Assembly (NCBI GenBank): GCA_965198125.1
Contig: CBDAOQ010000003.1
Coordinates: 4,554,541-4,618,540, forward strand
Direction of reading: 5' to 3'
Length of the DNA: 64,000 nucleotides
Source: Candidatus Versatilivorator sp.
GTDB taxonomy: Bacteria > Acidobacteriota > Terriglobia > Versatilivoradales > Versatilivoraceae
A program made the translations under genes and the position numbers. Shown in pieces: positions 7,232-53,367 of the stretch. The notes under the pieces were generated by a model. It had not been told where the DNA came from. It saw only the letters and a program-made list of their open reading frames with translations, and did not search any database. Position 1 is the stretch's first letter, and every line of letters starts with the position of its first letter.

Positions 7232-7729
7232 CGGAAGAGTCGCTCAGAGACGCAATCAACTGCCCGCCGGGAAATACCGTCTCTTTCTGCCCACACACAC
7301 GGTGAGCACGATGTGACATTTTACACTGTGCCCGGCCCGTGTTTCTCATCGGATCGCTGGATACAACATGAAAAACAATTTATCTGCCATCCATGTCGAC
7401 CCTTCGATTCTTGTTTCTATCTTTATTGCCGCCACCGGCTGCAGCGGTCCTCTTCAGTCGCTCCAGTCCTGCCATGTCGAGGCACACCCCTTTGAACGGA
7501 CTGATTCGGGAAATCCCTTGGCTGCCACATAAGTCAACTCACTTTGAAAACGCAGCACTAGCGAGACCCGTTCAGGGCCGGTCTGGATTTGCTATCAATC
7601 CCTTCAGTCTCGCCAGGGCGAAGCTGCTTGCAATAGCAGCGGAACTTCATGATGTCGCCGTTGCCCCTGTTCAGTCGCAGGTTTTTTGCAATCGGACCTA
7701 TTCTCCCAAACGAGGAAGTCGGCCAAGGC

Positions 7730-8539
7730 TCATGGGTTCCCACCAGGTCGGGAGCACTTTCCCAACCGGAGCCGATGCTTCCAGAGGAACTTGAGCAAGC
7801 TGAACAGATGATGCCGCTTGGCGCCCAACCTCCATCCCCTGGCGCTGTCCCTGCGATGGCCGTGCACCAGGCAAGCTGCCGGATTGTAGAGCACCTTCCA
7901 GCCCCGGTCCCACATGCTCTTGCACAGGTCCACGTCCTCGAAGTAGAGGAAAAAGCGCTCATCCAGAAGAGCACTCCAATTCACCGCTGCCCTCCGGATC
8001 AACATGGCGGCCCCCAGTCCCCAATCCACTTCAGACAACCTGCGGTGGTCCCAGTCCGCCATCAGATGGCGCTGCAGTTTGGGATGGTTTGACCAGAGAC
8101 GCTGAAACGGGGCGCGCCGCAGCAGCAGGGTGGCAAGCGTGTAAAAACGCCGGCAGGAGTATTGAAGGCTGCCGGCGGGACTGTTGAGTCGGGGCAACGC
8201 CACACCCGCATCGGGGTGCTGCTCCAGAGTGGCTGCCAGGACCTCCAGCGCTCCGGCCCCGACCCGCACATCCGGATTCAGGAGCAACAGATATGGACCC
8301 CGGGATTGACGATATCCCTGGTTCACGGCGGCGGCAAATCCACGGTTGGATCGGTTCTGAATTATTTCGATCCGAGGCAATCCCGGGCCGGAGATGGGAG
8401 CCAGATCTTCAGGACAATCATTGTTGATCACACAGATCTCGTAGTCCAGGTCCCCTGTATTTTGGGCCAGACTGCGAAGGCAGCAGGCAAGCTCGTGTCC
8501 CGACTGGTAGTTGACGATAACGATCGACACCCGGCTCAT
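7730..8539 (-). CDS. GT2 glycosyltransferase (WbbL/rhamnosyltransferase-like)
   Basis: VSIVIVNY, NRGFAAAVNQG, LLLNPD, DERFFLYFEDVDLC; 4-bp overlap with the upstream GT. Confidence 0.9.
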   Translation of the reverse strand: MSRVSIVIVNYQSGHELACCLRSLAQNTGDLDYEICVINNDCPEDLAPISGPGLPRIEIIQNRSNRGFAAAVNQGYRQSRGPYLLLLNPDVRVGAGALEVLAATLEQHPDAGVALPRLNSPAGSLQYSCRRFYTLATLLLRRAPFQRLWSNHPKLQRHLMADWDHRRLSEVDWGLGAAMLIRRAAVNWSALLDERFFLYFEDVDLCKSMWDRGWKVLYNPAACLVHGHRRDSARGWRLGAKRHHLFSLLKFLWKHRLRLGKCSRPGGNP

Positions 8540-11500: not shown

Positions 11501-11898
11501 ACGCCGGCCCGTTTTCCGATGGCCAACTGAAGATCCAGGTGTTCGGTTGCCAACCTCCAGGGCACCCGGCTGAAATAGGCCGCCAGGATTGGAACGAAGC
11601 AACTGAAGGTATTATTCAGGTTGAAGTGAACGATGGTGGGCTGCTGTCGCCGGAAATAGCGATAGGATTCCAGGAAGACTCTTAGTGGAGACCGGTTGGC
11701 GCTGTCCAGTTCGTCGACGAGGATGCCTCGGTCTTTAAAAAACCGGGCCAGCGGAGCCATCTCCGGAAGGGGAGAAAGCGCCACTCGAGGCTGGTACTGG
11801 TCGTGGGGTATTTCCGGGACGAGGAGTTTGAGGTAGGCTTCAGCGCCACCGAGGAAGACGGCGTCGCAGAAGTAAATCACCTTGTAGGGTGTCCGCAT
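8536..11898 (-). CDS. Tri-domain glycosyltransferase GT4-GT2-GT4 fusion
   Basis: N-terminal GT4 (GGAE, YEGLPLSILEAMA), central GT2 (LVDNGSTDGT, LLNND, YVEDADL), C-terminal GT4 (GAGLRGKLLEAMAMG). Confidence 0.88.
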   Translation of the reverse strand: MRTPYKVIYFCDAVFLGGAEAYLKLLVPEIPHDQYQPRVALSPLPEMAPLARFFKDRGILVDELDSANRSPLRVFLESYRYFRRQQPTIVHFNLNNTFSCFVPILAAYFSRVPWRLATEHLDLQLAIGKRAGVRTKKFVKRVMTFCLDYTIPVSQANKQLLVEDYRVNPYRLKLILNGIDVNRFAFTASGRRAIRQSLGIGPEQTLIGTVARFNFQKGHQYTVEAIPSILKSCPQARFLFVGEGPTQARLADRVRQLGLQPYVTFAGAREDVAEILSALDIFLLTSLYEGLPLSILEAMAVGLPVVATSVSGTPEAVTEQHTGLLIPPEDSQAVASAVVRLVKDPESRRRMGANGRKLVHRRFDKSLMVGQVEHIYQNLVDRQRRPAAHSKTPDSGRRRASLIVLTWNKREILKEALDALVEAVRHDGGDHEIILVDNGSTDGTQDYVRTHYRNIRLIELKKNYRFSRANNIGVQCARNEVVVLLNNDVIVQPGFLDPLLKGFERPDVFAVTSQIFNYDSGKTRLETGKTFGMMMFGCMHVGHTPPTPVDEKRQYVPAFYAHGGSSAYHRQKFLELGGFSEIYNPAYVEDADLSYRAWKAGFRVLFCPASRVAHKHRSTNATEIGNSRIDYLIARNLFVLFWKNVTSFGLFFSHLLKLPFRFLLDISRGRLGILKAFAGALLKAPQVVWNRLVSPPPGRLSDQEAIAAIHHWFFYRHRYLSNGDRPAGPRKILVVSKRLPRLGVDGSWILVNLLKGLSARNEITLLSFIETSQDQAHVDRLKQYCKEVRTITLYPYDRELKSAFLFSKLLAVVHACLMMRREVLNELSTGDYDLVQCEYLHTLNFIPDLRRYPSLLTHHEVLSLAYERLFRKAGSWGEKISAFIKWRLMRVYEKRLCRKVRSVVALSAVDRDYLSRRLKVARPCLAQSGVDVDFFRSMPGVRERPNSLMFVGFFKHPPNVQGMSYFFREIWPGILEAVPNATLTVVGRSVPSHLSAHSKKGQVAFLDGVEDLRPLLSSHAVFVAPIVSGAGLRGKLLEAMAMGKAVVATRLCLDGYPFHHDRDLMVADSSAEFLHYTLELLKDPLKRRRLGGNARAKVEDEYSSPRFAADYEQLYEELSA

Positions 11899-12170
11899 GG
11901 ACCGCCACCGACCTCGTGCAGGCTTGGGCGAGGATTTGCAGATTCCACTCCTCTCTCGGCGCCAATCTTGGGAGAATTATACAGTACTGTAGAAAAGGGC
12001 GGCAACTTGGATATACTCGGTTCGAACGGACCGCCACGACAAAATCCATGGCAGCAGGAGTCGGTTTCGCCGCCCCTGAGGTCGAGCTTGCGGCAGGAAT
12101 CGACGGTCCCATAGCCAACTGACGGATCTTCAACCGGACCTGTAGCCTTCGATCCGATACCAGCAATTCC

Positions 12171-14081
12171 ATGTCCCATGTTCACCCGGTGTCTGCCAAG
12201 ACCATGCAGGGCGCCTCGCTCATGGTTCTGCGTACCGCGGCCTTGTATCCCATAGGTTTCCTGGGTGAAGTCTGGCTGGCACGGCTGTTGGAACCCCAGG
12301 ACTTCGGTGTCTACGCCATGGCCGGCTTCGTCACCGTAACCCTGGCCACGGTCCTCGAGGTAGGCCTGGGGGGCGCCCTCATACAGCGGCCCGAGCCACC
12401 CGGCCGGGATGAATTCCAGACATTTTTTTCCTTGCAACTTCTGGTGATCTCCGTCCTGGTCCTGGGCCTGTTCCTGCTTGCTCCCCGACTGCTCGGCTGG
12501 ATGAACCTCGATTCGAGCGTCCGCTGGATACTGCTTGGCCTGTTACCCTGTCCCTGGATCAGCGGTTTGGGGGCCATGTCCTGCGTCCGCCTGGACAGGA
12601 GCCTTCGCTACGGCGTGTTTGCCAAAATGGACGTACTGAGAGTGCTCTCCTACGTCGGCATTGCCGTGCCCCTGGCTATTTTGGGGTGGGGCGTCTGGAG
12701 TCTGGTGGTCGGAATCGTGGCTGGCACGCTGGTGCGAAGCGCGGTGGCCTTTCAGGCTGCCCCCTGGCCCGTTGGATTTCGATTGCGGTTTTCAGGAATG
12801 GGGAAAACCCTGCGCTTTGGTTTTCTCTTCCAGGCCTCGACGCTGACCTCCCTCTTTCGCGACCATATCCCGGTGTTGCTGGCCGGTCCTCGATTCGGCC
12901 CGCAGTCTGTAGGCTACCTGAATTGGGCCAAGAACATGACTTTCTACAGCAGTCAGGCCTTCACCCAGGCAGTGTCCCGAGTGACCTTTCCCTCTATTTC
13001 ACGCGTCCAGCAGGATCCGCAGGCAGTCCGCCAGATAGCACAGAACACTCTCAAGTACGTCAACCTCTTAACCTTCCCGAGTATCCTGATCTTCGCGGCC
13101 TTGATACCCGAGTTCGTGCAAGTGGTATTTACCTCCAAATGGGCTCCGGCCATTCCGGCCTTTTACTTTTATTCCATCCGAATGCTTGGATCCAACATCA
13201 GCACGCTTCATATTGCCGTGCTGAACGGTCTGGGAAGGGTTGAGATCTCCCTGCGAATCCTGGTCTGGTGGACAATTCTGGATTGGGCTCTGGCATTGAT
13301 GCTCTGTTCCTGGTTCGGATTCGAAGGGGTGGCCATGGCTTATGCAATCAGCGTGATTCCCGTTGCCGCCTGGCTGGTCCTGGAACTGAACAAGCTGGTA
13401 AAGGTCGATCTGTTGCGGAGTCTTGTCTTCCCGCTTGCGATCAGTGGCGCGGCAGCAACCGCGGTCTGGCTGGCCAAAGGCGGAAGCCAGGCCTCCTGGC
13501 TGACCCTTTGCGGATGGATATTGGCCGGGCTCGTCTTTTATGTCCTGTTATTGCTGCTGGTTGAGGGGCGGTCCCTGCTCGGGGACATTCGAGTTTTTCT
13601 GACAACCCTGGCCCGGAGGGAACGAAAGATTCACCTGATTCCGAGTTGCGCAGAGATTTCCCGAATCAGTGCGTTCAATGGGGCGTGCCTCCCCATTTCC
13701 CTGCACCCAGTCGCCATGGATACACGGGATAAACAGGATGAAGAACCGGGCGATCCCGTTTATCCTCGCCATCCTGTCAATCCATGTAAAACAAGAATCG
13801 AAGGGACGACCTGGATGGCAGATGAGGGTTGCTTAGCGGGAACGATTGCAAGCCGGTTCTTTGGGTTTTTCTTAGTGTCCCTTCGTGGTCCTTCGTGCCC
13901 CTTCGTGGATATCTTTTTCCCCTTCATTGCTTGTTGCTCTGAGGCACAGCTCACTAGTCAACCGGACAGACACGATCACGCGATTCCATGCGCAGAGTCC
14001 TCCAAATTTCCCTTTGGCTCACCCAATGGAGCGAGCGGTGGATGCCCAGTGCATTCTCCATCGCCGCCGGACTCACCCTGA
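12171..14081 (+). CDS. Wzx/PST-family oligosaccharide flippase; the last ~150 codons read through intergenic repeats
   Basis: LARLLEPQDFG, many TM segments, PKW-like SKWAPAIP. The hydrophobic domain ends near 13630 and the rest translates repeat DNA. Confidence 0.8.
   Translation: MSHVHPVSAKTMQGASLMVLRTAALYPIGFLGEVWLARLLEPQDFGVYAMAGFVTVTLATVLEVGLGGALIQRPEPPGRDEFQTFFSLQLLVISVLVLGLFLLAPRLLGWMNLDSSVRWILLGLLPCPWISGLGAMSCVRLDRSLRYGVFAKMDVLRVLSYVGIAVPLAILGWGVWSLVVGIVAGTLVRSAVAFQAAPWPVGFRLRFSGMGKTLRFGFLFQASTLTSLFRDHIPVLLAGPRFGPQSVGYLNWAKNMTFYSSQAFTQAVSRVTFPSISRVQQDPQAVRQIAQNTLKYVNLLTFPSILIFAALIPEFVQVVFTSKWAPAIPAFYFYSIRMLGSNISTLHIAVLNGLGRVEISLRILVWWTILDWALALMLCSWFGFEGVAMAYAISVIPVAAWLVLELNKLVKVDLLRSLVFPLAISGAAATAVWLAKGGSQASWLTLCGWILAGLVFYVLLLLLVEGRSLLGDIRVFLTTLARRERKIHLIPSCAEISRISAFNGACLPISLHPVAMDTRDKQDEEPGDPVYPRHPVNPCKTRIEGTTWMADEGCLAGTIASRFFGFFLVSLRGPSCPFVDIFFPFIACCSEAQLTSQPDRHDHAIPCAESSKFPFGSPNGASGGCPVHSPSPPDSP
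13715..13787. repeat. Inverted ACAGGAT-type repeat pair
   Basis: CCATGGATACACGGGATAAACAGGAT ... ATCCTCGCCATCCTGTCAATCCATGT; same family as 4386-4592 and 30851-31088. Confidence 0.65.
13871..13945. repeat. ~75-bp dispersed repeat with a CTTCGTG triad (second copy 39857-39930)
   Basis: CTTAGTG..CTTCGTGGTCCTTCGTGCCCCTTCGTGGATATCTTTTTCC..CTTGTTG..TGAGGC nearly identical at both sites. Confidence 0.8.
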
Positions 14082-42258: not shown

Positions 42259-45174
42259 ATGCTCCATAGACTTGGTGTCCTGACCGTTGTGCTGCTCCTG
42301 GTTGGGGTTTCCGGCGTTGCCTACGCTCAGGGAACCGCTACCTTGAAAGGCGAGGTGAGCGACAACTACGGCTCGGTCATCCCGGCCGCGGAAGTAATTG
42401 TGACCAACAATGCCACTGGAGTCGAGGTAATCGCCTCGACGGATGCCGTCGGCAGCTACGAATTGACCCTGGAGCCCGGGACCTACACGGTAACGGTGGA
42501 GGCTTCCGGCTTCGAGACGGCCAGCGCCAGCGACGTCGAACTGATGGCAGGCCAATCGGTCCTGCGCAACTTCTCGCTGGAATTGGGAGCCGTCACCACC
42601 TCGATCGTGGTGGTTGGGAGCCGGGCCGAGCCAAGGTCGGCGACCGAGTCCACCGTGCCGGTGGACGTCATCCGCCCCGAGGACTTTTCCAACCAGGGAA
42701 GCAGGGACCTGGCAGCCCAGTTGCGGACGGTGATTCCCTCCTTCAACATCAACACCCAGCCGATCAGCGATGCGGCCACCGTCGTCCGGCCGGCCAACTT
42801 GCGCAACCTGGCCCCCGACCACACCCTGATCCTGGTCAACGGAAAGCGCCGCCACCGCTCGGCCGTCATCACCTGGCTGGGGAACGGGATCGCCGATGGC
42901 TCGCAGGGGCCCGACATCTCGACTATTCCATCCATTGCCATTCGGCAGGCCGAGGTTCTCCGTGACGGTGCAGCCGCGCAATACGGCTCGGACGCCATTG
43001 CCGGAGTCATCAACTTCCAACTGAAGAACGCTCCCTCGGGAGGCAGCCTGGAAGTCCAGACCGGGGGGTACCTCAATTCAAATCCGGGGGACCCGGCGAC
43101 CTGCGGGTCGGGGATCATCGGCGACATCAAGCACTCCTGCAACGGGATCGGCGGACATGGCCAGAACTTGTCGGTCGCCGGAAACATCGGGATGCCGCTT
43201 GGATCGAACGGTTTTGTCAACCTCAGTATGGAGTACGGCAACGCCAACCCCACCAACCGCGCCATCCAGCGCGATGACGCCCAAGGCATTATCGACGCGG
43301 GTAACACCAATTTGCGCAACACGGCCCAGGTCTGGGGGGCCCCAAGGATCAACCACGACGTCAAGCTGTTCGGCAACTTCGGCCACATGTTCGAGAACAA
43401 TTGGCAATTCTACGGTCACGCCAACTACGTTACCCGCAAGGTGACCGGTGGCTTTTACTTCCGGAATCCACACACCCGCGGCGGGGTTTTCCGCGGTCCC
43501 AAGGTGAATGGCCTCTCCACGCTGCTCGTCGGCGACCGGGTCTGGGCCGAGACCGCTCCCGAAGGCCGCGAGCCTCCTCCCGGACGCGAGCCAGGCTCCG
43601 GCGGCTGCCCCATCGTCCCGATTATCGACAACGTGCCCGATCGCGATGCACTCGCGGCCGTCGAGGCCGACCCGAACTGCTTCACCCTCCACAGCCGCTT
43701 TCCCGGAGGGTTCACCCCGCAATTCGGCGGTGACCTGATCGACTACTCGCTGGTCACCGGCCTGCGCGGCTTCGCCAGCAACGGTTTCACCTGGGACGCC
43801 AGCGCCAGCATCGGCACCAGCGAGATCGATCAGTTCATTTTCGATACGGTCAATGCGTCCCTCGGCTACGACACCCCGACATCCTTCAGGCCAGGCATCT
43901 ACCGGCAGGACGAAGTCAATTTCAACTTCGACGTTTCCTACCCCCTCCACCAATACGTGCACACGGCCGCCGGCACGGAGTGGCGGCAGGAGAAGTTCAC
44001 CATTGGCGCCGGCGATCAGTCGTCGTGGGAAATCGGTCCCTATGCCGTGCAGGGGTTCAGTTCCGGTTCGAACGGCTTCAACGGCTATCGGGCCGACACC
44101 ACGGCGGGAGAGTGGAGCCGCAGCAATGTCGCCGTCTACGGCGACGTCGAGTTTGGCGACCCCGGCAAAAAGTGGACGGTCGGTACGGCCGTCCGGTTTG
44201 AGGACTTCGAGGACTTCGGCACCACCATCAACGGCAAGATCTCGGGGCGCTTCGAGCTGAGCGATCGCGTCGCCCTGCGCAGCGCCATCAGCAGCGGGTT
44301 TCGGGCGCCGACACCGGGGCAACAGCATGCATTCAACGTGACCACGGCCTTTATCGGCGGGCAGTTGACCAACAACGGCGTGGTCCCCTCCACCTCGGCG
44401 GTGGCTGTTACGCGCGGCGGCGGTCAGCTCCAACCGGAGAAATCACGCAACTACAGCGCGGGCATGGTGGTTGAGGAGGGCCCCTTCACCTTCACTGCCG
44501 ACTATTTCCGGATCGACATCGCTGACCGCGTTTCCCTGTCTCAGGAAATCAACTTGTCGGAGGGGGAGATCGAGACGCTGCTGGACGAAGGGATTCCCGA
44601 AGCACGCAATTTCCCCGTGTTCCGCTTCTTCCTGAACGACTTTTCGACCACGACCCAGGGCATCGACCTGATCTCGACGATGGTGGTCGGGAAAACGACC
44701 TTCAGTGGGGTCTTCAACTACACGGATACGACCCTCAAGGACATTGAATCGTCGGTGATCGACACTTTCCGTATCACGACGCTGGAACGGGGACTGCCCA
44801 ACACGCGCTGGAACTTCACCGTCAACCACGACGGCGGACGGTGGAACCTGATGGGCCGCTTGAACTACTTCGGTGCATTCTGGGACAGCGAGGACGGGCG
44901 CAACGCGAACGATGTGGCTCCGGATGTTGTGACAGAGTCCTGGCTCTACCCCTCCTATGCCGGCAAGGCGCTGCTGGATCTGGAGCTGGGTATCCCGTTC
45001 GGAGACAACCTCAAACTGGCCCTGGGGGGTGAAAACGTGCTGAATACCTACCCCGAAGTGAACCAGTATGGCGCCCAAACGGTGGGCAACAAGTACGGCC
45101 AGTTCTCGCCCTTCGGGTTCGGCGGCGCCTACTACTACGTGCGGCTCAGCTACAGTTGGGGTAAGCTTTTCTAG
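42259..45174 (+). CDS. TonB-dependent receptor with N-terminal carboxypeptidase-regulatory-like domain
   Basis: Signal peptide, plug motifs TLILVNGKRRH and EVLRDGAAAQYGSDAIAGVINF, SGFRAP, PEKS, terminal F; AGGAGG RBS. Confidence 0.93.
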   Translation: MLHRLGVLTVVLLLVGVSGVAYAQGTATLKGEVSDNYGSVIPAAEVIVTNNATGVEVIASTDAVGSYELTLEPGTYTVTVEASGFETASASDVELMAGQSVLRNFSLELGAVTTSIVVVGSRAEPRSATESTVPVDVIRPEDFSNQGSRDLAAQLRTVIPSFNINTQPISDAATVVRPANLRNLAPDHTLILVNGKRRHRSAVITWLGNGIADGSQGPDISTIPSIAIRQAEVLRDGAAAQYGSDAIAGVINFQLKNAPSGGSLEVQTGGYLNSNPGDPATCGSGIIGDIKHSCNGIGGHGQNLSVAGNIGMPLGSNGFVNLSMEYGNANPTNRAIQRDDAQGIIDAGNTNLRNTAQVWGAPRINHDVKLFGNFGHMFENNWQFYGHANYVTRKVTGGFYFRNPHTRGGVFRGPKVNGLSTLLVGDRVWAETAPEGREPPPGREPGSGGCPIVPIIDNVPDRDALAAVEADPNCFTLHSRFPGGFTPQFGGDLIDYSLVTGLRGFASNGFTWDASASIGTSEIDQFIFDTVNASLGYDTPTSFRPGIYRQDEVNFNFDVSYPLHQYVHTAAGTEWRQEKFTIGAGDQSSWEIGPYAVQGFSSGSNGFNGYRADTTAGEWSRSNVAVYGDVEFGDPGKKWTVGTAVRFEDFEDFGTTINGKISGRFELSDRVALRSAISSGFRAPTPGQQHAFNVTTAFIGGQLTNNGVVPSTSAVAVTRGGGQLQPEKSRNYSAGMVVEEGPFTFTADYFRIDIADRVSLSQEINLSEGEIETLLDEGIPEARNFPVFRFFLNDFSTTTQGIDLISTMVVGKTTFSGVFNYTDTTLKDIESSVIDTFRITTLERGLPNTRWNFTVNHDGGRWNLMGRLNYFGAFWDSEDGRNANDVAPDVVTESWLYPSYAGKALLDLELGIPFGDNLKLALGGENVLNTYPEVNQYGAQTVGNKYGQFSPFGFGGAYYYVRLSYSWGKLF

Positions 45175-45375
45175 CCAGCCAGACGGCCCAGCGGGGGGTC
45201 ACGAACAGCTTTTCCCTGGCCCCCCCAACCTCAACCCCGGGGCCACCGCCTGGTTGCGGACAGCCGTAGCGAGCCTGAAGGTCGCTGGAAATCGGTGTTG
45301 ACGGAACTCGCCTCCCAAAGGTCTGGACATCAGCCTGTCTGGTTTCGTCCCTTCGAGTTCAACGGCGGTTTTGGG

Positions 45376-45852
45376 CTACCCGCAACTCAACCATTGGGCC
45401 AGCGCCTTGTCCGGATTGGCCAGTTCCTCGATCGAGTCATACCAACTGGCTTCCCAGCCGCTTTCCGGAAGGCCGGTGAACACCATCAGGTTGAGAGGGT
45501 AGCCTTCGCTGTCGGTGCAACGCCGGAAATCGTCCCGGAACAGGAATACCGGCTTCCCCCAGGCAATCGCCATCCCCAGCTCCACCATCACTCCCTCGTC
45601 CGGGGGACAGCCGTTGACTACTGCAAACAGTCCATCCGCCTCCCGCACGTCGCGAAGGTCAGCCTGACCGATCCGATAGGCCCAATGCGGGCTGCTCCGG
45701 TCGATCTGGTTGTTGCGGGCAAACGGCTCCCACACCTGGGCGCCCATCGATTCCAGGGCCGCCACCAGATCCTGCAACGGTCCCGCGCGCTGCTGCGCCG
45801 AGAATCCGTACGGATTGGCCAGATAAAGGGTCTTTTTCGTCAGCATGTTCAT
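45376..45852 (-). CDS. Nucleoside 2-deoxyribosyltransferase-family protein
   Basis: LYLANPYGF, DLRDVREAD, PDEGVMVELGMA, NLM. Confidence 0.85.
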   Translation of the reverse strand: MNMLTKKTLYLANPYGFSAQQRAGPLQDLVAALESMGAQVWEPFARNNQIDRSSPHWAYRIGQADLRDVREADGLFAVVNGCPPDEGVMVELGMAIAWGKPVFLFRDDFRRCTDSEGYPLNLMVFTGLPESGWEASWYDSIEELANPDKALAQWLSCG

Positions 45853-45957
45853 CTCAGCAAACCTCTCGACCCGAGGGGCAACAAAGGCCCCTAACCACGC
45901 CGCCGCCAAGGCGGGGCGGCCGCTGCCGCTGATATTGACTCACGGGGGGCGGTGTTT

Positions 45958-46060
45958 GCCCCCCACCGGCTCGACTGCGGGCTCCGGGCAATCACTCCCC
46001 CCTCGAGGGGGAGTCTCAGAAGCCGAGCCGCCAGGCGAAGGCCGATGCGGTGGGGGGTGG
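45958..46060. repeat. REP-like composite palindrome
   Basis: CCCCCCACCGGCTCGACTGCGGGCTCC..ATCACTCCCCCTCGAGGGGGAGTC..GAGCCGCCAGGCGAAGGCCGATGCGG; matches 31185-31255 and 31421-31492. Confidence 0.75.
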
Positions 46061-46103
46061 AAGCCGGGCCGCACCTTAGTATACATTTCTGCTCCATCGC
46101 TGC

Positions 46104-47009
46104 TCAGATCCCAACACTTGGAGCATTGCCGAGTGGTGCGCGTCCCAGCGCTAACAACTGGCGCACAAGTTGCCGACCTTCTTGAGTTATTCCTGGGGAA
46201 GCGAGCAGGGGTTGGGCTCTCGCGACTTCGTCGCGGACGGCACGCACGCGCTCCTCGGCGAATCTCCGGTCCAGTCCGGGTGGCGGCCTCTGCGCCGCAA
46301 GCTGCCACAGTCTCTGCACAATCACGAACACATACAAAGCGTGGAGCACGCCCTGCACGTTCCGTTCGCAGTTCCGCCACGGTGAGAAGGTGACCGTTTC
46401 CGGGCGGTTCGACTCGACGAACGGAATCCGGCGTTCGAGCAAGGACAGTTGCAGGTGCATCGTTTCGTGGACCAGAGCTTCCGCCACCCGCTCGGTTCTC
46501 GCGTGAGTCCCGTGGTCTGGTACGGAGAGGAACACGGAAAAAGGCAGGTCAGGCCTGCTGAAGCTACAATCTACCTCGGGAGACGACGCCTTGAGCAGGT
46601 GGACGCAGCGCACTAGGTGTTCGATGGAGGAGGACAGCTCCGGCCAGACAGCATGCGTAAGATGCCAAGCCTGTCTCAGGATGCCAACATCATCCGCCGG
46701 AACCGTAGACTCATCGACTCTGTGCAGCGAAAGACCCACAGCGTCAAGCTCGGCGACAGCTCGATAGGGGAGACACTCAAGTAGAACGAGGCATCCCTTC
46801 ACTCCAGCTGGCGGATCGACCTTGCCAATGATCCGCCTTGCCTCGTTGGCGTTTCGCGCCATCATGCGCGCCGTGCCGTAGGACTCGAAGTCGAGACCAA
46901 GCGGACTCAGGAGGTCGGCAACACCAATCTGTTGCAGTGCCGCAGGCAGTGCCGAAGTCCAGTGAGCGGGGCGCAGGAGGACGTCTTCCACAGATTGAAC
47001 AGTGTCCAT
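46104..47009 (-). CDS. HExxH-motif RiPP tailoring protein (aKG-HExxH-like)
   Basis: SFSRPDLPFSVF, EALVHETMHLQL, SPWR...R...GVLHALYVF; last gene of the RiPP operon. Confidence 0.8.
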   Translation of the reverse strand: MDTVQSVEDVLLRPAHWTSALPAALQQIGVADLLSPLGLDFESYGTARMMARNANEARRIIGKVDPPAGVKGCLVLLECLPYRAVAELDAVGLSLHRVDESTVPADDVGILRQAWHLTHAVWPELSSSIEHLVRCVHLLKASSPEVDCSFSRPDLPFSVFLSVPDHGTHARTERVAEALVHETMHLQLSLLERRIPFVESNRPETVTFSPWRNCERNVQGVLHALYVFVIVQRLWQLAAQRPPPGLDRRFAEERVRAVRDEVARAQPLLASPGITQEGRQLVRQLLALGRAPLGNAPSVGI

Positions 47010-47018
47010 AGCAAGCTT

Positions 47019-47606
47019 CTATCTGACGACCGCATGAAACGAATACACGATGGAATACCGCTCGCCACGGACGACTTCGCTGACTGCATGATGCGAGCGG
47101 CGGGATATCTCAAAGATCAAGGCCTGTCTCGACACAGGCGCGAGGACCACCCGCACGTCTTCAGGTTCGCCACCACCAAAGAGCAGCAAGTACCCACCGT
47201 CGCCAGCACTCCAGCCGCGATTCAGCTGCACGATCAGTCGATGGGTCTCGCCACCCTCAAGGTAGTCGTCGTGGATCCGAATGCGCTGCCCTTTCGTAAG
47301 TCGATGAGCTGTCATGTCGACGGTCGCTTGGAGTCGCCTGTTGAAAAGTGCCGAAATCTGATCACGCATCTCTGCAATGGTCGTATCGGCAGCCAACTGC
47401 GCGACGTCAGAGGGCAACTCGACATCGCGCATGTCGAATTCGTGCTGACAATAGAACGATTCCTCCGTGAGATTCCACGGAGCTGCACGTTCGAACCATG
47501 ACAAGGTCGACCGCTCGACTTCGGTGCACAAGGCTTCCGGCAAAACAGAAAACGGAAAAGGGTCTATCTCGAGGCAGGCAGTTGACAAGTCGACAACGGG
47601 TCGCAT
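47019..47606 (-). CDS. yhhC: 2OG-Fe(II) oxygenase (YhhC-like)
   Basis: FYCQHEF, IRIHDD (HxD), THRLIVQLNRGW..GG, SHHAVSEV..GERYS. Confidence 0.78.
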   Translation of the reverse strand: MRPVVDLSTACLEIDPFPFSVLPEALCTEVERSTLSWFERAAPWNLTEESFYCQHEFDMRDVELPSDVAQLAADTTIAEMRDQISALFNRRLQATVDMTAHRLTKGQRIRIHDDYLEGGETHRLIVQLNRGWSAGDGGYLLLFGGGEPEDVRVVLAPVSRQALIFEISRRSHHAVSEVVRGERYSIVYSFHAVVR

Positions 47607-48757
47607 CAGGCTGGGAGGTGGGCGTTTAGGTATCGTCGAACGTGTGAAATCAGAAAAAGGTGATCGGTACAGTAGACCGAAGGGTTATCGAAGCCCCGCT
47701 CGTCGCTCCAACGGTAGAGCGGCATCCCGCCGCCACAAACCGAGAGTTCGGGGCAACGCAGGCATTGGTTGTTGGCAGGATGCTGCATCTCGACATGCTC
47801 TCGAAAGGCGGCTGTCCGCACGATATCCTGCAAAGAATGAGAATGGATTGACCACAGCTCGTTGAACCGATCTCCGCCGTCGAATGTACTCTTGAGCGTG
47901 TCGTTCTTCGTGACAGTCCCATCGGTATCGATGATGAGGATCGCGTTTTGGTCTCGCCCCATTCCCTCCTTCGTAGCTGACCCTCCAAGCACCAGCTTCA
48001 CCAAGTCATCCAGCACGCGGACCGGAACGGGATCGGGATCACTCATGTAGACATCGAAGAGGCCTGCCAGCCATTCTCCCGCTTCGTGCGTATCGAATCC
48101 GGCCTTGCCTGGCGGCAAACGCGAGTGGTTTCCGTCGGGCAGAAGAAAACTCATCCCAGGTACACCGAGCCCTCGCAGGAACCAGTAGACATCGCTGGGA
48201 TTCGTGGACGGTTCGACAACGCTGAGTGTGCCTGAGAACAGTCGTTCCGTTGCAGGGTGGCGTTGCAGGCAATGGATACCGCTGAGTGTGGCCCCGAAGG
48301 TCCCACCTTGATCGAACCGCACGCGGCGGGAATCATTGATCTTCTTCGGTCCGTCGAGACTCACTGAGACCGTGGCCCCGGCGTCCACAAAAAGGTCGAG
48401 CAGCGGATCAGTGAGGAGCGTCCCGTTCGTCTGCACCGACAGAGTGCATCCCACGGGGAGGCGGGAGCGGAGACCAGTCAGTAACCGCGCTAGTAGTGCT
48501 TCTCCAAGCAGCAGTGGCTCCCCACCGTGGAGCACGACGGCGAAGTCCTGATCTTGAGCCTGCCGCAGTTCATTGAGACGACTGACTATAGCGTCGATCG
48601 TTGCCTGCGACATGGCAGGAGGCTGACGTTGCCACCCCTGGTCACCGAGCTGGTAGACGTAACAATAGCTGCACGCGATGTTGCAACGGCTGGCGACCTT
48701 CAGCAGGACAGTATCGATAGGGACCGGCACGTCACCCCGACATGGTGGCCCGTTCAC
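47606..48757 (-). CDS. yhhB: Cyclophane-forming radical SAM/SPASM maturase (YhhB-like)
   Basis: KVASRCNIACSYCY, HGGEPLL, QTNG, SLDGP, SPASM CxxC..CGGG..NPSVYC. Confidence 0.85.
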   Translation of the reverse strand: MNGPPCRGDVPVPIDTVLLKVASRCNIACSYCYVYQLGDQGWQRQPPAMSQATIDAIVSRLNELRQAQDQDFAVVLHGGEPLLLGEALLARLLTGLRSRLPVGCTLSVQTNGTLLTDPLLDLFVDAGATVSVSLDGPKKINDSRRVRFDQGGTFGATLSGIHCLQRHPATERLFSGTLSVVEPSTNPSDVYWFLRGLGVPGMSFLLPDGNHSRLPPGKAGFDTHEAGEWLAGLFDVYMSDPDPVPVRVLDDLVKLVLGGSATKEGMGRDQNAILIIDTDGTVTKNDTLKSTFDGGDRFNELWSIHSHSLQDIVRTAAFREHVEMQHPANNQCLRCPELSVCGGGMPLYRWSDERGFDNPSVYCTDHLFLISHVRRYLNAHLPA

Positions 48758-48948
48758 CGGTTGTGCCGGTTGTGTACGCGGTCGTACCGGGTGCTGGAAG
48801 ATGATTTTGCCGTCGTCTCCATGCGTACCTCTTCTACGAGTCGACGAAGAGCCGGACTCAACTCGGTGCCCGCCGGAATATCAATGCGACTGTCAAAGAC
48901 GGCATTCTCCAAAGACCCGGAGGTGGTCAACTGTTCCTTCTTCTCCAT
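48754..48948 (-). CDS. yhhA: Triceptide RiPP precursor (YhhA-like), core YDRVHNRHNR
   Basis: Leader SPALRRLVEEVR, C-terminal Y-D-R, H-N-R, H-N-R motifs; stop overlaps the rSAM start. GGAG RBS before MEKK (alternative start 48993). Confidence 0.85.
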   Translation of the reverse strand: MEKKEQLTTSGSLENAVFDSRIDIPAGTELSPALRRLVEEVRMETTAKSSSSTRYDRVHNRHNR

Positions 48949-49100
48949 GGCTTCGCTCCATGCTTCTGGTGTCATGTGTGCACTAGCTTCCATTCTACCA
49001 CCGAATCGGTCGATGATCTATCATCATTGTCTGTAAATCACTTAAAACAAACGATGATCATCTCGTTGTTTTCAATTAACCTATTTAGAATCATTGATTT

Positions 49101-49874
49101 CTAGGTTATATTATCCGTTTCTTCGCCGACGGTAGTCAGATAGTCGCGAGCCATAGCGCTGTGAGGGGCGTCGGGTCGTGCGAACGAGTCTACTTTGAGC
49201 CTCGCTTTGCGACGTAGGGCCTCACTTGTGCCTGGGTCGCGTACGACCTCATACAGAATCTCCAACTGGTTGAGTACGCACTGCCTATCCTCCTGCAATC
49301 CTGGCCGATTCAACCCAAGCACGGTGACCGTCACTCGCCCGCGTTCCGTGCCCGGCTCACAAGCAGATCCATTGAAAGTAAGGTGCTCGCTCAACTCTGT
49401 CTCGCCGTAGGGATTCAGGAGCAACAGAGACTCCCTGTCGAGGGGGTCGAGGTGATTCCGAGTTCGCTGTCCGGGCTCTTCAAGCGGGAAGTAATCAGAT
49501 TTCTTAAGGTTGCACGTTTCGCAGGCAAGCACGAGATTGTCCCACCGGTATGCCAGCCAATAGTAGCCAGGATATAGCTTATTGCTCATCTTGTCCTGAC
49601 GAACAGCACCCTTCGGGCGGAAGTGGTCGATCCGACCTGCAGAGGTGGGGGAAGGCTTCGACTCACAATAGCAGCACTTATCGTGCTGGAGCGTGCTGAG
49701 AGCATTCCTGACTTGTGGGGATCCATAGATGTTCTTCTTGATTTTGAACTTCAGTTTGCCGGAATCATACGCAGCCCGACTACCAATGTAAGCGTCGCAG
49801 TCTTGTCGAGTCGCGCTGTTTCCGTGACTCAAAAGCAACGGAGGAATACGATCCGGCCTGTTCAGGTTAATCAC
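49101..49874 (-). CDS. HNH endonuclease, PtuB/retron-effector-like
   Basis: QHDKCCYCES, IDHFRPK, YYWLAYRWDNLVLACETCNLKK, LLLNP, LGLNR; GTGA overlap with the ATPase stop. Confidence 0.85.
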   Translation of the reverse strand: MINLNRPDRIPPLLLSHGNSATRQDCDAYIGSRAAYDSGKLKFKIKKNIYGSPQVRNALSTLQHDKCCYCESKPSPTSAGRIDHFRPKGAVRQDKMSNKLYPGYYWLAYRWDNLVLACETCNLKKSDYFPLEEPGQRTRNHLDPLDRESLLLLNPYGETELSEHLTFNGSACEPGTERGRVTVTVLGLNRPGLQEDRQCVLNQLEILYEVVRDPGTSEALRRKARLKVDSFARPDAPHSAMARDYLTTVGEETDNIT

Positions 49875-51220
49875 CTCTTCTCTTCCCGCCGTGCCTGAAG
49901 ATCTGCCGCCGCCTGCCGAATGATCCGCATTGCTTCCTGGTCCTCGAGCTGCTCCGCGGTAGGCAATGAGGCCAGTTCGTCGGCAATTTGCTGGAGCCGT
50001 ACGCTGGCTTTCGGGGTAACCGGATGCTTCTCGAACAGCTTCTCCCGCTCTTTCATGAGAGCTTCGACACGTAGCGATCTCGCGGTCTCTAGTTCGAAGA
50101 GATTGACCAGAATCTGGTCGAAGCGCCACCCCTCGACGACGTCTGGTTCGTTCTCAATGGCTACTTGATCGCCTGCCTCAGTCTGTTTCAGCACGGCTAC
50201 GTTGACATCGATCATGGAGGTGATCATCAGCGGACTGTGAGTAGTCGCGACGAACTGAACGTTTCTAAAGTGATCGGAGAACTGTTTCATGATCATGCGC
50301 TGCCAGCGAGGATGAAGGTGCAGGTCGATCTCGTCGATCAACACCACAGCCGGCTCCGCAAGCGGCTTCGTGCTCTCTGGGTAGTGCTTGACAAGCCTCC
50401 ACGCCAGGTCAACGATCCACGCGGTGACGGTTCGGTGGCCAAGACTCAGGTCATTCAGCGGGACATCCCCGAACTGGGTCTGAAATCTGAGCCTGCCGCT
50501 AAGTTCTTCCGGGTCTGCGATATCGATGTCGCTGGCCGCATTGATGAAAGGGAGGATATCGGCCAAGGCATGTTTCATACTATCCAGACGGGCCTTCGAC
50601 TTCGCGTTGCCTTTAAGGGCCGAGTAGTCGAGCTGTGACAACACATCGGCGGCATCGATAAGCTCTGTGCTGTCTTCATGAAGCAGGTCACCCGGTTCAG
50701 ACTCAGACAACTTTTCGGCATTCTGATTTCCCATATACCGATTTGCCGCATAAGGAATGATGAACGGTTCTACCGTCGTGTCGGGCTCGTTTACAGTTCG
50801 CCGCACATTCTCGAGCGTGTTGTCGCGGGCCGATAGGGCCATTCCGGTTCTTACGCGCGCCGTTGACGGGATGCCTGACGCTAGAGTAGGAATCTCGACC
50901 ATCTCCGCCTGCAGGGTCGTGCTGCGGGCACCGTCACGTAACAGCTTGGCCATGTCAGGAGGATCTTGATCGTGCAGCCATGGTTGGATACCTGCTTGCG
51001 TATCCTTACCAGGCGGGTAGTACGGTGTCGGGCGCATCCATGCCAGACACTGCAGGAGGGTCGTTTTGCCAACTCCGTTGTCCCCCACGAGCAAGGTCCA
51101 ACGGGCTGGGCGGCCGTTTGAGTCTACAAGGTGCAGTACCTGCTTTTCCGCAAAGCAACGCGCGTTCTCAATCTCAAGACTGAGGAAGTAGATCGCTCTC
51201 TGGCGGCGTTTGGCTGGCAT
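49871..51220 (-). CDS. ABC/AAA_21-type ATPase, PtuA-like
   Basis: Walker A GDNGVGKT, signature LSLG, Walker B/D-loop VLIDEIDLHLHPRWQ, H-loop TTHSP. Confidence 0.88.
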   Translation of the reverse strand: MPAKRRQRAIYFLSLEIENARCFAEKQVLHLVDSNGRPARWTLLVGDNGVGKTTLLQCLAWMRPTPYYPPGKDTQAGIQPWLHDQDPPDMAKLLRDGARSTTLQAEMVEIPTLASGIPSTARVRTGMALSARDNTLENVRRTVNEPDTTVEPFIIPYAANRYMGNQNAEKLSESEPGDLLHEDSTELIDAADVLSQLDYSALKGNAKSKARLDSMKHALADILPFINAASDIDIADPEELSGRLRFQTQFGDVPLNDLSLGHRTVTAWIVDLAWRLVKHYPESTKPLAEPAVVLIDEIDLHLHPRWQRMIMKQFSDHFRNVQFVATTHSPLMITSMIDVNVAVLKQTEAGDQVAIENEPDVVEGWRFDQILVNLFELETARSLRVEALMKEREKLFEKHPVTPKASVRLQQIADELASLPTAEQLEDQEAMRIIRQAAADLQARREEKR

Positions 51221-51579
51221 TCGAATCTCTCGATGGTCGGTGAACTATACGCCGAGGACGATCCACGCCACCGCGCACACCGCACTCTACTGCAGATTAA
51301 CACCCTGCATGGCACATTCCGCTCGGAGAGTGATCGCTGTCATCCGATACTGACCCGCCCCCGCGATTTTACCACTTTCTAAGTTAGAAGTTCGCGTCCA
51401 CTTCTCCTCACGTGGCCGTTTGTTTCAGGCCAACATCTGAGCTCAGGATACAGAAAACCAGAAAAACTGAGGGAGTTATAGGAGTGTCAACGACGAAACA
51501 GGTGGGGGACTTATTGGGGGATCATTGCAAGTTGAATCAAATATAACCTATTGATATAAAAATATTTATATATAATATC

Positions 51580-51669
51580 TGGCGGAGAGAGCGGGATTCG
51601 AACCCGCGTTAGAGTTTCCCCTAAACACGCTTTCCAAGCGTGCGCCTTCAGCCACTCGGCCACCTCTCC
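51580..51669 (-). tRNA. tRNA-Ser(GGA)
   Basis: GGAGAGGTGGCCGAGTGG..CACGC-TTGGAAA-GCGTG, long variable arm, GGTTCGAATCC, CCA end. Confidence 0.97.
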
Positions 51670-51825
51670 CCATTCAATTACCGCCCGATTGTAGTGAAAA
51701 CCCGGGGCGGCGTCCAGAGGGCTTCGGATTCAGGCCCGGCGGCGCCGCCGCGTGGCCCGGTGGCGTGGGACTGCCCCAATCCGCGGGCTGATGCCCACGG
51801 CCGGTCCGCAGCGGCCTTGCCTCCC

Positions 51826-52257
51826 TCACAGAATCCGGACCCGGTCGCCCACGGAGATGGCACCTCCCGACTCGACGCTTGCGAGCATTCCCCTGCGTCC
51901 ATGCAACTCCCGCTGCAGGCCGGCCCGGATTTCATCCATGCGGCTGCAAGGCCGGCAGGGCGTGGTGATTCGCAGCCGCACCTCCGATCCGATCTGCAGG
52001 ATGCGGCCTTGATCGAGGCCATTCAAGGCGATGCCGCGAATGGTCAGGTTTTCCTTGACCTCGCCGATACGCAGGTTCATGGCTTGCAGCGTTTCTTCCT
52101 CGATGAGGAGAACCTGGCGCTCACTCCCTGCCCGAGCGTGGTGATCCATCTCCAGACCCAAATCCTGAATGAGCCTGGCCGGATTGACCGGTTGCATGGG
52201 CCGGCGGGACCCGGGACACCGCTGGATGCTGACAAGGACTCCTTTGTGGGAACTCAT
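51826..52257 (-). CDS. MOSC domain protein
   Basis: GLEMDHHA, RQVLL, ENLT, PCRPC, RRGM...GGAISVGD. Confidence 0.85.
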   Translation of the reverse strand: MSSHKGVLVSIQRCPGSRRPMQPVNPARLIQDLGLEMDHHARAGSERQVLLIEEETLQAMNLRIGEVKENLTIRGIALNGLDQGRILQIGSEVRLRITTPCRPCSRMDEIRAGLQRELHGRRGMLASVESGGAISVGDRVRIL

Positions 52258-52491
52258 GGAACCTTCCTGGACATTTCCAATGCTCACCACCTGGCGGACC
52301 CAAGTCTTCGCCCCATTCCAGGCCCGATCCCTAGCCGGAATCCCCGAAGCCGGCCAGATTCCCGCCGCAGCCCTGGCGTTGCCCACCTTCCGGCTCCGCG
52401 GGCATCCTCAATTTGACCGGCCCGCGGCCATTCATTAAGATGGGCACCCCGGTCAGCTTCCGTGTTCTCCTCGGCGATGCCTCTCGGATCA

Positions 52492-53070
52492 ATGGGACAA
52501 TCGGCTTCTCAAATTGCCTCTGAACTGGCTTCTCGGGCCCCACACAGACTCGAGGGCCGACATTCGGGGCGAGCGGCCGTTCTGATGCCGATCTGGGAAC
52601 GAAGGGAAGCCCTGTATTTCCTGCTTACCCGGCGTACCGAAACGGTGGAAACCCACAAGGGACAGATTTCCTTTCCCGGAGGCATGCGAGACTCGGAGCA
52701 GGAGCCCCTGGTTCGGACCGCGCTGAGAGAAACGCAAGAGGAGATCGGGCTGCCGGAATCGCAGATACGAATCCTGGGGCAGTTCGACGACTACCTGTCC
52801 TCCACCGACCTGATTGTCACGCCATTTGTCGGCTGGGTCTCCCCCCCACTGGAGCTGAGTCCCAACCCTGAAGAAGTCGAAGAGATTTTGGAGGTCCCCT
52901 GGAGCCTCTTCCGAGATCCCGGTTTATCCAGGACCGAAACCCTCCACCGACTGGGCCGGGACATTCTGGTCTACCACTACGATTTTCGAGGCCGAGACGT
53001 CTGGGGGCTGACGGCCCGGATCATCCGGGATTTCCTGCACCTTATGGATGCCTTGCCTCCCGAAAGTTGA
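52492..53070 (+). CDS. CoA pyrophosphatase (NudL-like Nudix)
   Basis: AAVL, LTRR..HKGQISFPGG, TALRETQEEIG, VWGLTA. Confidence 0.9.
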   Translation: MGQSASQIASELASRAPHRLEGRHSGRAAVLMPIWERREALYFLLTRRTETVETHKGQISFPGGMRDSEQEPLVRTALRETQEEIGLPESQIRILGQFDDYLSSTDLIVTPFVGWVSPPLELSPNPEEVEEILEVPWSLFRDPGLSRTETLHRLGRDILVYHYDFRGRDVWGLTARIIRDFLHLMDALPPES

Positions 53071-53075
53071 CGTTG

Positions 53076-53337
53076 AAGCCGCATTTCTCACCAGGGGGTT
53101 GCACTCTTCTCAAGAGTGCAACTTGGCGCAGGATTTTCCGCTTCAGCGCGTGCTCGTGACCGAAGGGCGTAGCCGGAACACCATTCAAGGGAGCATGTGC
53201 GCGCTGAAGGGGAAAAGACAAGCCAGGGCGCGCCCAGCACCGTCTGTCCCCTGCAGACTCCAAACAAAGCGCCGCAAGATGTTAAAGACAAGCACTTTTC
53301 TACCTTAGGCTCAGCGTCCTGGTGAGAAATGCGGGTT
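53076..53337. mobile_element. ~260-bp MITE (copy 1)
   Basis: TIR A(G/C)CCGCATTTCTCACC / GGTGAGAAATGCGGGT; first ~165 bp nearly identical to 56825-56990. Confidence 0.85.
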
Positions 53338-53367
53338 AAAGCCGCGGCTGCCCGATTTTAGCTCCCC

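Follow-up and report, generated by a model that had tools for sequence, protein, structure and literature searches.

In a 64,000-nucleotide stretch of Candidatus Versatilivorator sp. (contig CBDAOQ010000003.1; hereafter the window, whose coordinates are used throughout), six minus-strand genes in one direction (46104-51220) stand directly behind a tRNA-Ser gene. Two of them encode the ABC ATPase PtuA and the HNH nuclease PtuB of Septu systems, and the other four encode a precursor and three enzymes for a Yhh triceptide, a peptide that is ribosomally synthesized and then post-translationally modified (RiPP). We tentatively propose, with slightly less than even confidence, that the six genes form a composite, horizontally mobile anti-phage cassette ('Yhh-Septu'), in which an intracellular triceptide would regulate PtuAB by analogy with the multicopy single-stranded DNA (msDNA) of type I-A retrons. 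The inserted segment and its right border comprise the following features.

51580-51669, minus strand: tRNA-Ser(GGA), called by ARAGORN and by Rfam (tRNA, 58.2 bits); its 3' end marks the insert's right border exactly.
51221-51579, minus strand: leader region between the tRNA and ptuA, 359 nt, GC 0.47; part of the insert, absent from the related genome G009; presumed ptuAB promoter region.
49871-51220, minus strand: PtuA, Septu ABC/AAA_21-type ATPase, 449 aa; PADLOC PDLC00304, 452 bits over residues 1-444; Pfam AAA_21 (79.5 bits) and AAA_15.
49101-49874, minus strand: PtuB, Septu HNH nuclease, 257 aa; PADLOC PDLC00339, 243 bits over residues 1-249; Pfam HNH, 24.1 bits (cut-off 21.4).
48949-49100, minus strand: AT-rich spacer between ptuB and yhhA, likely the yhh operon's own promoter/operator, from an alignment of 11 collinear cassettes.
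48754-48948 (longest open reading frame (ORF) 48754-48993), minus strand: YhhA precursor, core YDRVHNRHNR; NF041705, 53 bits (cut-off 36).
47606-48757, minus strand: YhhB, radical S-adenosylmethionine (SAM)/SPASM cyclophane synthase, 383 aa; NF041707, 468.9 bits (cut-off 445).
47019-47606, minus strand: YhhC, 2-oxoglutarate (2OG)-Fe(II) peptide hydroxylase, 195 aa; NF041706, 225 bits (cut-off 150); Pfam 2OG-FeII_Oxy_4.
46104-47009, minus strand: alpha-ketoglutarate (aKG)-HExxH-type peptide beta-hydroxylase, 301 aa; TIGR04267, 115.7 bits (cut-off 40); HETMH at residue 181; its stop codon is the left end of the insert, and homology to L064 and to other cassettes goes no further.

The genes are tightly packed. 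GTGA overlaps join ptuA to ptuB, the GTG start of PtuB lying on the TGA stop of PtuA, and yhhA to yhhB; yhhB and yhhC overlap by 1 base, and 9 bases separate yhhC from the HExxH gene. Catalytic motifs are intact in PtuA, PtuB, YhhB and the HExxH enzyme. PtuA contains the Walker A sequence GDNGVGKT and the Walker B sequence VVLIDEID, and its residues G46, K52, T54, D296 and H328 do not vary among 33 sequences. Likewise invariant are CCYCE...H84...N113...N122 of PtuB (36 homologues) and, in 15 homologues of YhhB, the CxxxCxxC cysteines C25, C29 and C32 together with the SPASM cysteines C332, C335, C341 and C363. Relatives of PtuA in the PDB include the Septu PtuA (8ee4/8ee7) and the PtuA of retrons Ec78/Ec83, and PADLOC models give YhhB, YhhC and the HExxH enzyme weak generic matches or none. 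Most of this organization had been read from the DNA beforehand. The original prediction described six co-directional genes starting at the tRNA-Ser 3' end, a Septu-like ATPase/HNH pair, a closely spaced series of precursor, radical SAM/SPASM enzyme, 2OG oxygenase and HExxH protein, and an AT-rich spacer of 107-152 bp; these were confirmed by the ARAGORN and Rfam calls of the tRNA, full-length PADLOC matches with the GTGA junction, NCBIfam scores above cut-off with overlaps or a gap of 9 bases, and a spacer GC of 0.33-0.39, respectively. It had also noted that leader peptidase, exporter and immunity genes are missing, and indeed none is found among the ORFs of the block 46104-51579.

The 13 other genomes of the genus were searched with 12.5 kb of window sequence. 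The closest relative, G009, matches at 94-96% identity up to position 45986 and again from 51580; at its empty site 427 bp of short GC-rich repeats join these two positions, and all six genes are absent. According to this comparison, the insert starts just past the HExxH stop codon and reaches precisely to the tRNA 3' end. It contains the six cassette genes and nothing else, a single indel relative to the nearest relative. The G+C content is 0.52-0.58 in ptuAB, 0.56-0.61 in the yhh genes and 0.60-0.65 outside, and the cassette is patchy, occurring in 3 of the 14 genomes of the genus. The insertion point is exact, though the other hallmarks of a tRNA-linked integrative island are missing: the insert has no integrase ORF, and a search of 44500-52500 yielded no direct repeat of the tRNA end. 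All eight flanking ORFs are housekeeping genes (a pyridoxal phosphate enzyme, a TonB receptor, MOSC, NUDIX, GpsA, CinA and others) and yield no PADLOC match at 1e-10; thus the 5.6-kb cassette is solitary and does not lie within a larger defence island. The genes adjoining the block, a nucleoside 2-deoxyribosyltransferase (45376-45909) and the TonB receptor, both belong to the backbone. The former was considered as a retron-II-like effector and rejected, being a backbone gene contiguous in G009.

The pairing of the two modules recurs in other genomes. YhhB loci were drawn from a one-genome-per-species scan (45 loci, 25 of them with YhhB of at least 47% identity), from whole-genome searches of relatives, and from a scan of metagenomes with an alignment of 15 YhhB sequences (80 loci, 47-88% identity). 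Distant radical SAM enzymes of 22-36% identity (L006-L012, L039-L058 and L060-L063, including a short 41% fragment in L051) were left out; apart from weak HExxH-like matches in L039 and L063, tblastn found matches only to YhhB in them. The resulting census comprises 107 YhhB loci, the window's own locus excluded, whose neighbourhoods were searched by tblastn with the window proteins and four further PtuA/PtuB pairs. PtuA and/or PtuB were detected beside Yhh genes in 45 of the 107 loci (15/27 genomic and 30/80 metagenomic); most of the other 62 lie on contigs of 1.4-6 kb, too short to reach the expected PtuAB position, and in genome G006 YhhB lies at a contig end and is uninformative. Fully informative loci, defined by at least 3 kb upstream and at least 3.7 kb downstream of YhhB, number 39, and 35 of them have the HExxH gene. 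The neighbour in these 35 loci is PtuAB in 23, a HEC-04-like ABC ATPase in four, a Sel1-DUF2971 protein in two, and an AAA_15 ATPase with a 170-aa partner, a SIR2-TPR protein and a PIN protein in one each; three have no defence-like neighbour. None of the four informative loci lacking HExxH has PtuAB. Collapsing YhhB at 95% identity changed the picture little (22 of 37 clusters with PtuAB). Such a survey of neighbourhoods had been suggested as a check on the original prediction, and its outcome favours a specific link to PtuAB.

Apart from PtuA/PtuB and the Yhh genes themselves, gene families recur beside yhh in four loci at most (five in the smaller genome set). Hence no conserved exporter, peptidase or immunity gene accompanies the cluster, within the limits of crude ORF calling, which leaves room for non-homologous ones. 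The link to PtuAB was also seen in a sample of 401 Acidobacteriota genomes not chosen through YhhB. YhhB scored above cut-off in five of them, and all five have PtuA within about 3.5 kb; because two of the five share a genus, this amounts to four or five events rather than a statistic. The window PtuA has eight matches at E<=1e-30 in seven of the 401 genomes, and every match of at least 44% identity is Yhh-linked. In a sample of 400 Gammaproteobacteria, YhhB was above cut-off in the centre genome only. The window's genome has a single PtuA copy, and genomes whose Yhh locus is without PtuAB have no PtuA elsewhere at 1e-20 (3/3). No match to YhhB at 1e-20 was found in phage records.

The relative arrangement of the two modules varies among the 45 PtuAB loci. 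The effector genes are convergent directly after the HExxH stop in 23, collinear upstream as in the window in 13, divergent upstream in six and on the same strand downstream in one, and in two loci (L030 and L037) ptuBA is placed between yhhC and the HExxH gene. According to record titles, the hosts include Vicinamibacterales, Bryobacterales, Terriglobia, Pseudomonadales and other Gammaproteobacteria. Twelve locus pairs were compared by blastn; in every one the homology covers the Yhh genes and the effector alone, and the flanks are unrelated. For instance, the match of L015 to L016 is limited to 7543-12590, running from ptuA up to the HExxH stop, with up to 10 kb of unrelated flank on each side. 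The original prediction had allowed, as an alternative, an independent module merely co-located in a defence island. That alternative fits poorly with housekeeping flanks free of PADLOC matches and a homology limited to the cassette, whereas the linkage of RiPP and Septu modules agrees both with the single indel relative to G009 and with the pairing conserved elsewhere.

Distances between PtuA sequences follow those between YhhB sequences (Mantel r = 0.89, a value reached in 0 of 2000 permutations; n=35, both proteins full-length). Quick trees of YhhB (66 rows) and PtuA (41 rows, with L037 present in this tree only), with support from the Shimodaira-Hasegawa-like approximate likelihood ratio test (SH-aLRT) only, share several groups: the window clade, L117/L130/L131 with L133 close, L092/L107/L108, L023/L030/L037 and L087/L074/L076. 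The Yhh-linked PtuA proteins group in one clade with support 99. Genome G294 contains, besides a Yhh-Septu cassette elsewhere, two PtuAB pairs about 3 kb apart (L151, 2477-9067) that lie outside this clade. Linkage that outlasts transfer between phyla, reordering and changes of flank usually marks genes that work together, and some functional coupling between Yhh and PtuAB is in our estimation quite probable.

The peptide itself is strongly conserved. A YhhA-like ORF with ring motifs precedes YhhB in 103 of the 107 loci, and its C-terminus, Y-(D/N/S)-R-x-H-N-R-H-N-R, at times followed by G/S-R/Q, is near-invariant across all clades. The core has the same form whichever gene neighbours the yhh cluster. 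The leader motif is SPALRRLVEEVR in the window and SPxLxRLIEEVRNE across loci. Secreted antibiotic RiPPs tend to diversify. The near-invariance of the YhhA core across phyla would point to a single conserved target inside the cell and not to an arms race against competing organisms. The window core carries YDR/HNR/HNR, the predicted substrate motifs for the YhhB rings. On such motifs YhhB links Tyr-C3 and His-C2 to Arg-C-beta, YhhC makes erythro-beta-hydroxy-Asp, and in the accessible parts of these accounts neither a natural function nor a nuclease partner is stated (PMC11002830, PMC11499958, PMC12186529). Prediction of a complex of PtuA, PtuB and YhhA residues 20-79 gave a score of 0.00, run without controls and with a cross-linked peptide that cannot be represented, and is evidence neither way.

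Under the proposed mechanism the HExxH enzyme would add a further oxidation to the YhhA peptide, and the small, rigid, cationic product would stay in the cytoplasm, since neither an exporter nor a peptidase gene is present. The mature peptide would then serve as a regulatory ligand of the PtuA-PtuB ATPase-nuclease complex, most likely silencing it until infection disturbs the supply or the binding of the peptide; PtuAB thus released would cut nucleic acid and abort the infection. Other lineages would pair this peptide module with another ABC ATPase, a SIR2-TPR protein or a Sel1-DUF2971 protein. We favour this mechanism because of the missing export genes, the analogy with retron I-A, the parallel occurrence of alternative effectors and the peptide-binding repeat domains in some of them.

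The alternative effectors are of several kinds. In L022, L025, L026 and L038 a divergent upstream gene encodes an ABC ATPase of 512-582 aa; the best PADLOC match of those in L022, L025 and L026 is HEC-04 (120-126 bits), and further matches are to the retron I-B ATPase-Toprim, PtuA, AriA and GajA. The L037 locus retains the first 225 codons of a HEC-04-like gene (83.6% identical to that of L022), with ptuBA inserted further on, and looks like an effector replacement caught midway. Sel1-DUF2971 proteins, 494-745 aa as called, are encoded convergently against the HExxH stop in L078, L084, L088 and L112 (the last cut by the contig end). The same convergent position is occupied in L081 and L095 by an AAA_15/AAA_21 ATPase (PADLOC NsnB, PDC-M55A, AriA) with a 170-aa partner, and elsewhere by genes for SIR2-TPR (L103), TPR (L110), HEAT (L116) and PIN (L035) proteins; the TPR, HEAT and PIN neighbours, each occurring once, may be there by chance. 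Loci with sister YhhB proteins can have different neighbours, HEAT in L116 versus PtuAB in L120 and Sel1-DUF2971 in L078 versus PtuAB in L100, and these pairs share DNA homology only as far as the HExxH stop or a point just short of it. The analogy with retron msDNA, though it remains inferential, gains indirect support from such loci, as the place of PtuAB is taken there by other ATPase, SIR2 or repeat-protein genes.

A broader form of the proposal is conceivable but more doubtful: HExxH-bearing Yhh clusters may be the conserved signalling or sensing half of a modular immune family, in which a triple-cyclophane hydroxylated peptide is the intracellular ligand controlling PtuAB, OLD-like ABC ATPases, SIR2-TPR and Sel1-DUF2971 proteins. 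The TPR, Sel1 and HEAT repeats of some effectors would then be peptide receptors, and the peptide, whose supply needs SAM, 2-oxoglutarate, iron and translation, would thereby report takeover of the cell by a phage. The exchange of effectors also bears on an improbable alternative, in which the triceptide acts outside defence, in metal handling, signalling or stress, and PtuAB and the other toxic neighbours are an addiction module that stabilizes a mobile cassette. The cassette is indeed mobile and patchy (3/14 genomes of the genus, 5/401 of the phylum, 1/400 of the Gammaproteobacteria sample), its effectors are toxin-like, the peptide core is conserved like a ligand of housekeeping type, and the natural function of Yhh peptides goes unstated in the accessible parts of the published chemistry. 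Yet the recurrent partners all come from phage-defence families (PtuAB, OLD/ABC ATPases and SIR2), with DUF2971-type proteins recurring beside defence-like genes near yhh; an addiction module does not need exchange for SIR2-TPR or Sel1-DUF2971 in the same slot; and three-gene yhhABC clusters manage without such a partner.

Some decayed and distant loci were observed alongside these. In L023 (8035-9393; G435, Pseudomonadales) ptuA contains one in-frame TGA, reflecting either a pseudogene or an assembly error, and YhhB is frameshifted in the long-read assemblies of L036 and L037. A pair of genes resembling RADAR, for a KAP-NTPase-like protein and an RdrB-like adenosine deaminase, stands directly upstream of a yhh cluster with HExxH in L086 (1877-6259). 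In an Acinetobacter locus (L033, 4106-9616) yhh follows three co-directional genes, two of them tyrosine-recombinase-like and the third, of 719 aa, without a family; it looks like a recombinase-trio mobile element with yhh as cargo. Distant plasmid clusters of Novosphingobium (pLA4, L147) and Rhizobium tumorigenes (L148) have yhhB annotated at about 711-716 aa, roughly double length, and followed by GNAT and glycosyltransferase genes. The former is adjoined by a Piwi-domain/SMEK-domain pair (a short prokaryotic Argonaute, pAgo) and two integrases, and the latter by a Fic protein and a His-Xaa-Ser radical SAM system. On a Vibrio plasmid a distant yhh cluster stands beside AAA ATPase and DUF2971 genes.

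The expression signals of the window cassette point to two units. The ptuB-yhhA spacer measures 107 nt (GC 0.33) to the ATG at 48993 and 152 nt (GC 0.39) to that at 48948. The ATG at 48948, preceded by a GGAG Shine-Dalgarno sequence, is the start conserved in the 11 collinear cassettes; hence YhhA probably has 64 aa. The ATG at 48993, which opens the longest yhhA ORF (79 aa), sits within an extended -10-like box, TGgTAGAAT at 49000-48992, that is kept in the spacer alignment. Two palindromes, GATGATCATC (49062-49053) and GATGAT-AG-ATCATC (49025-49012), the latter conserved in most collinear cassettes, look like operators, yet the cassette has no regulator gene. Judging from these elements, the spacer likely holds the yhh operon's own promoter and operator. 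Scanning 45900-51700 for promoters and terminators did not single out such signals above chance, with four promoter-like sites versus 2.0 +/- 1.5 expected and five terminator-like sites versus 4.2 +/- 1.9 expected.

Metatranscriptome contigs from four runs of two studies, two of the runs labelled sponge metagenome, match the cassette at 95-100%. Two of them (48642-48967 and 48656-48968) span the yhhA-yhhB junction with 0 mismatches, others cover parts of the HExxH gene, yhhB, ptuB and ptuA, and contigs from both studies end at 48967-48969. Uncovered stretches, the ptuB-yhhA spacer among them, are uninformative. With carry-over of DNA possible, the contig ends and coverage hint only weakly at a separate yhh promoter and at expression of the cassette under natural conditions.

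Two repeats lie near the cassette. At the insert's left border (45991-46072) stands a GC-rich repeat of some 80 nt, and several copies of it fill the G009 site (L144, 853-1157), one of them called as tRNA-Leu(caa) by ARAGORN. The bin 45948-46163 has the highest or near-highest RNA contig depth in runs X17, X19 and X20 and none in X18; the repeat may be a repetitive extragenic palindromic (REP)-like element or a small RNA. A second repeat of about 260 bp (53076-53340) has 18 copies of 86-98% identity among the matches listed in its own genome, including one at 4611365-4611627 within the window's own stretch, and 17 among those listed in G009; it resembles a miniature inverted-repeat transposable element (MITE) or an insertion sequence (IS) remnant.

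A number of observations weigh against regulation of PtuAB by the peptide. Peptide binding, the intracellular location and the anti-phage activity are all deductions. Because YhhB served to find the loci, many of which are related, the counts suggest more independence than there is, and the correlation of PtuA and YhhB distances falls to r = 0.26 among pairs more than 35% divergent in YhhB. Two stand-alone PtuAB pairs (L149 and L150, flanked by housekeeping genes in large Acidobacteriota genomes) fall within the clade of Yhh-linked PtuA, and an obligatory inhibitor therefore fits poorly. In L064 (3641-7732), which has the YhhB closest to the window's (88% identical), PtuA is missing, PtuB is a remnant with a stop, and a 749-aa GmrSD-type restriction enzyme is encoded upstream; like the pair in L086, this neighbour gives the surroundings of yhh the flavour of a defence island. 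In L014 and L019 (9159-9635) PtuB has lost its first 98 residues, with the CCYCE and His84 region, and abuts PtuA while the yhh operon is intact; the effector is probably dead there. Loci L033, L119 and L127 have no effector, nor do the three-gene yhhABC clusters. Finally, ptuAB and yhh look like separate transcription units, often convergent, and the RNA contigs are compatible with DNA carry-over.

The neighbours in L064 and L086 feed the main rival explanation, which we regard as unlikely but by no means negligible. It holds that two self-sufficient defence modules travel together, through synergy or in a shared mini-island, with Septu acting alone, as it generally does, and the triceptide itself being anti-phage or antimicrobial. 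Such independence would accord with the stand-alone PtuAB in the same clade, the apparent separation of transcription units, the anti-phage lanthipeptides reported in the literature, as far as the accessible parts of those reports go, and the Yhh clusters that stand without PtuAB beside unrelated defence genes (GmrSD in L064, the RADAR-like pair in L086, short pAgo on pLA4, AAA ATPase and DUF2971 on the Vibrio plasmid). A random draw of defence systems, on the other hand, would hardly put PtuAB of a single subfamily next to yhh in 23 of the 35 informative loci. The intercalation of ptuBA in the yhh operon of L030 and L037, a unit of homology that includes the effector, the solitary position of the window cassette, and an invariant core peptide with no exporter found also speak for a joint function of the two modules.

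Both halves of the cassette are known families, and the Yhh-PtuAB combination is absent from PADLOC 2.0.0. Septu type I has the same ATPase/HNH pair, with overlapping genes and the motifs kept, but consists of two genes, whereas here four RiPP genes are conserved alongside across phyla and move with them as one cassette (45 loci, with only two stand-alone pairs in the clade). In type I-A retrons (Ec78/Ec83) an RT-msDNA complex (RT, reverse transcriptase) governs PtuAB. These retrons likewise combine a PtuAB effector with an extra module making a small, unusual and non-protein-like molecule, and across retron types the effector slot also varies, being ATPase-Toprim-like or SIR2, as in Yhh loci; PDB entries titled 'Retron I-A effector PtuA' are among the relatives of PtuA. 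By analogy, the cassette may be viewed as Septu to which a small-molecule module has been added, much as in retron-Septu. The extra module of retron I-A is RT-msDNA and that of the Yhh cassette a peptide-maturation pathway: the insert, all of whose ORFs are accounted for, has neither a reverse transcriptase nor msr/msd, and at E<=0.1 Rfam matched only the tRNA in it, plus one chance-level match on the opposite strand of the tRNA. PtuA and PtuB also fall far below the retron equivalog cut-offs (NF041760, 139.9 bits versus 500; NF041761, 40.1 versus 150).

The Yhh triceptide cluster YhhA/YhhB/YhhC is reportedly the subject of Sugiyama et al. 2022, known to us through citing papers. It shares with the window the YDR and HNR ring motifs, and YhhA, YhhB and YhhC exceed the NCBIfam equivalog cut-offs here too; the aKG-HExxH enzyme and PtuAB are additional in the cassette, although the original study may show neighbour genes. 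Anti-phage lanthipeptides also tie a RiPP to phage defence, but belong to another RiPP class with other enzymes, and the accessible part of that work does not mention a nuclease partner. The models of OLD/ABC-ATPase effectors (Gabija GajA, PARIS AriA, the retron I-B ATPase-Toprim and PADLOC HEC-04) are those matched by the PtuAB replacements in L022, L025, L026, L038, L081 and L095; we know of no link between these defence systems and RiPP genes. In a literature search that was thin on subscription journals, no paper turned up that joins PtuA to SPASM or RiPP, Septu to cyclophane, or the one module to the other.

The resemblance to a RiPP cluster raises the reverse scenario, which we consider very improbable, that PtuA and PtuB were recruited into the RiPP pathway for self-immunity, for processing or as a chaperone ATPase and have no immune role here. 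It can draw only on the tight linkage and on the absence of any other immunity, peptidase or export gene. Both proteins are full-length Septu matches with the Walker and HNH residues kept, their place can be taken by SIR2 and other effectors, and to our knowledge an HNH nuclease has no role in peptide maturation. Furthermore, the modified peptide was obtained in E. coli with plasmids encoding only YhhA, YhhB and YhhC, according to the accessible part of that report (PMC12186529).

Septu is widespread, and how its nuclease is restrained and later set free is still under study; retrons show that an odd small molecule can do both. The broader form of the proposal would describe the first immune system built on a RiPP ligand, equivalent in peptide form to retron msDNA or cyclic-nucleotide signals. 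The cassette, a compact 5-kb system, is directly testable in E. coli. If regulation by the triceptide is borne out, Sel1-DUF2971, SIR2-TPR and HEC-04-like ATPase effectors may likewise respond to this peptide. Yhh triceptides, known until now as chemistry only, would gain a biological role, and RiPPs would join the molecules of intracellular immune control.

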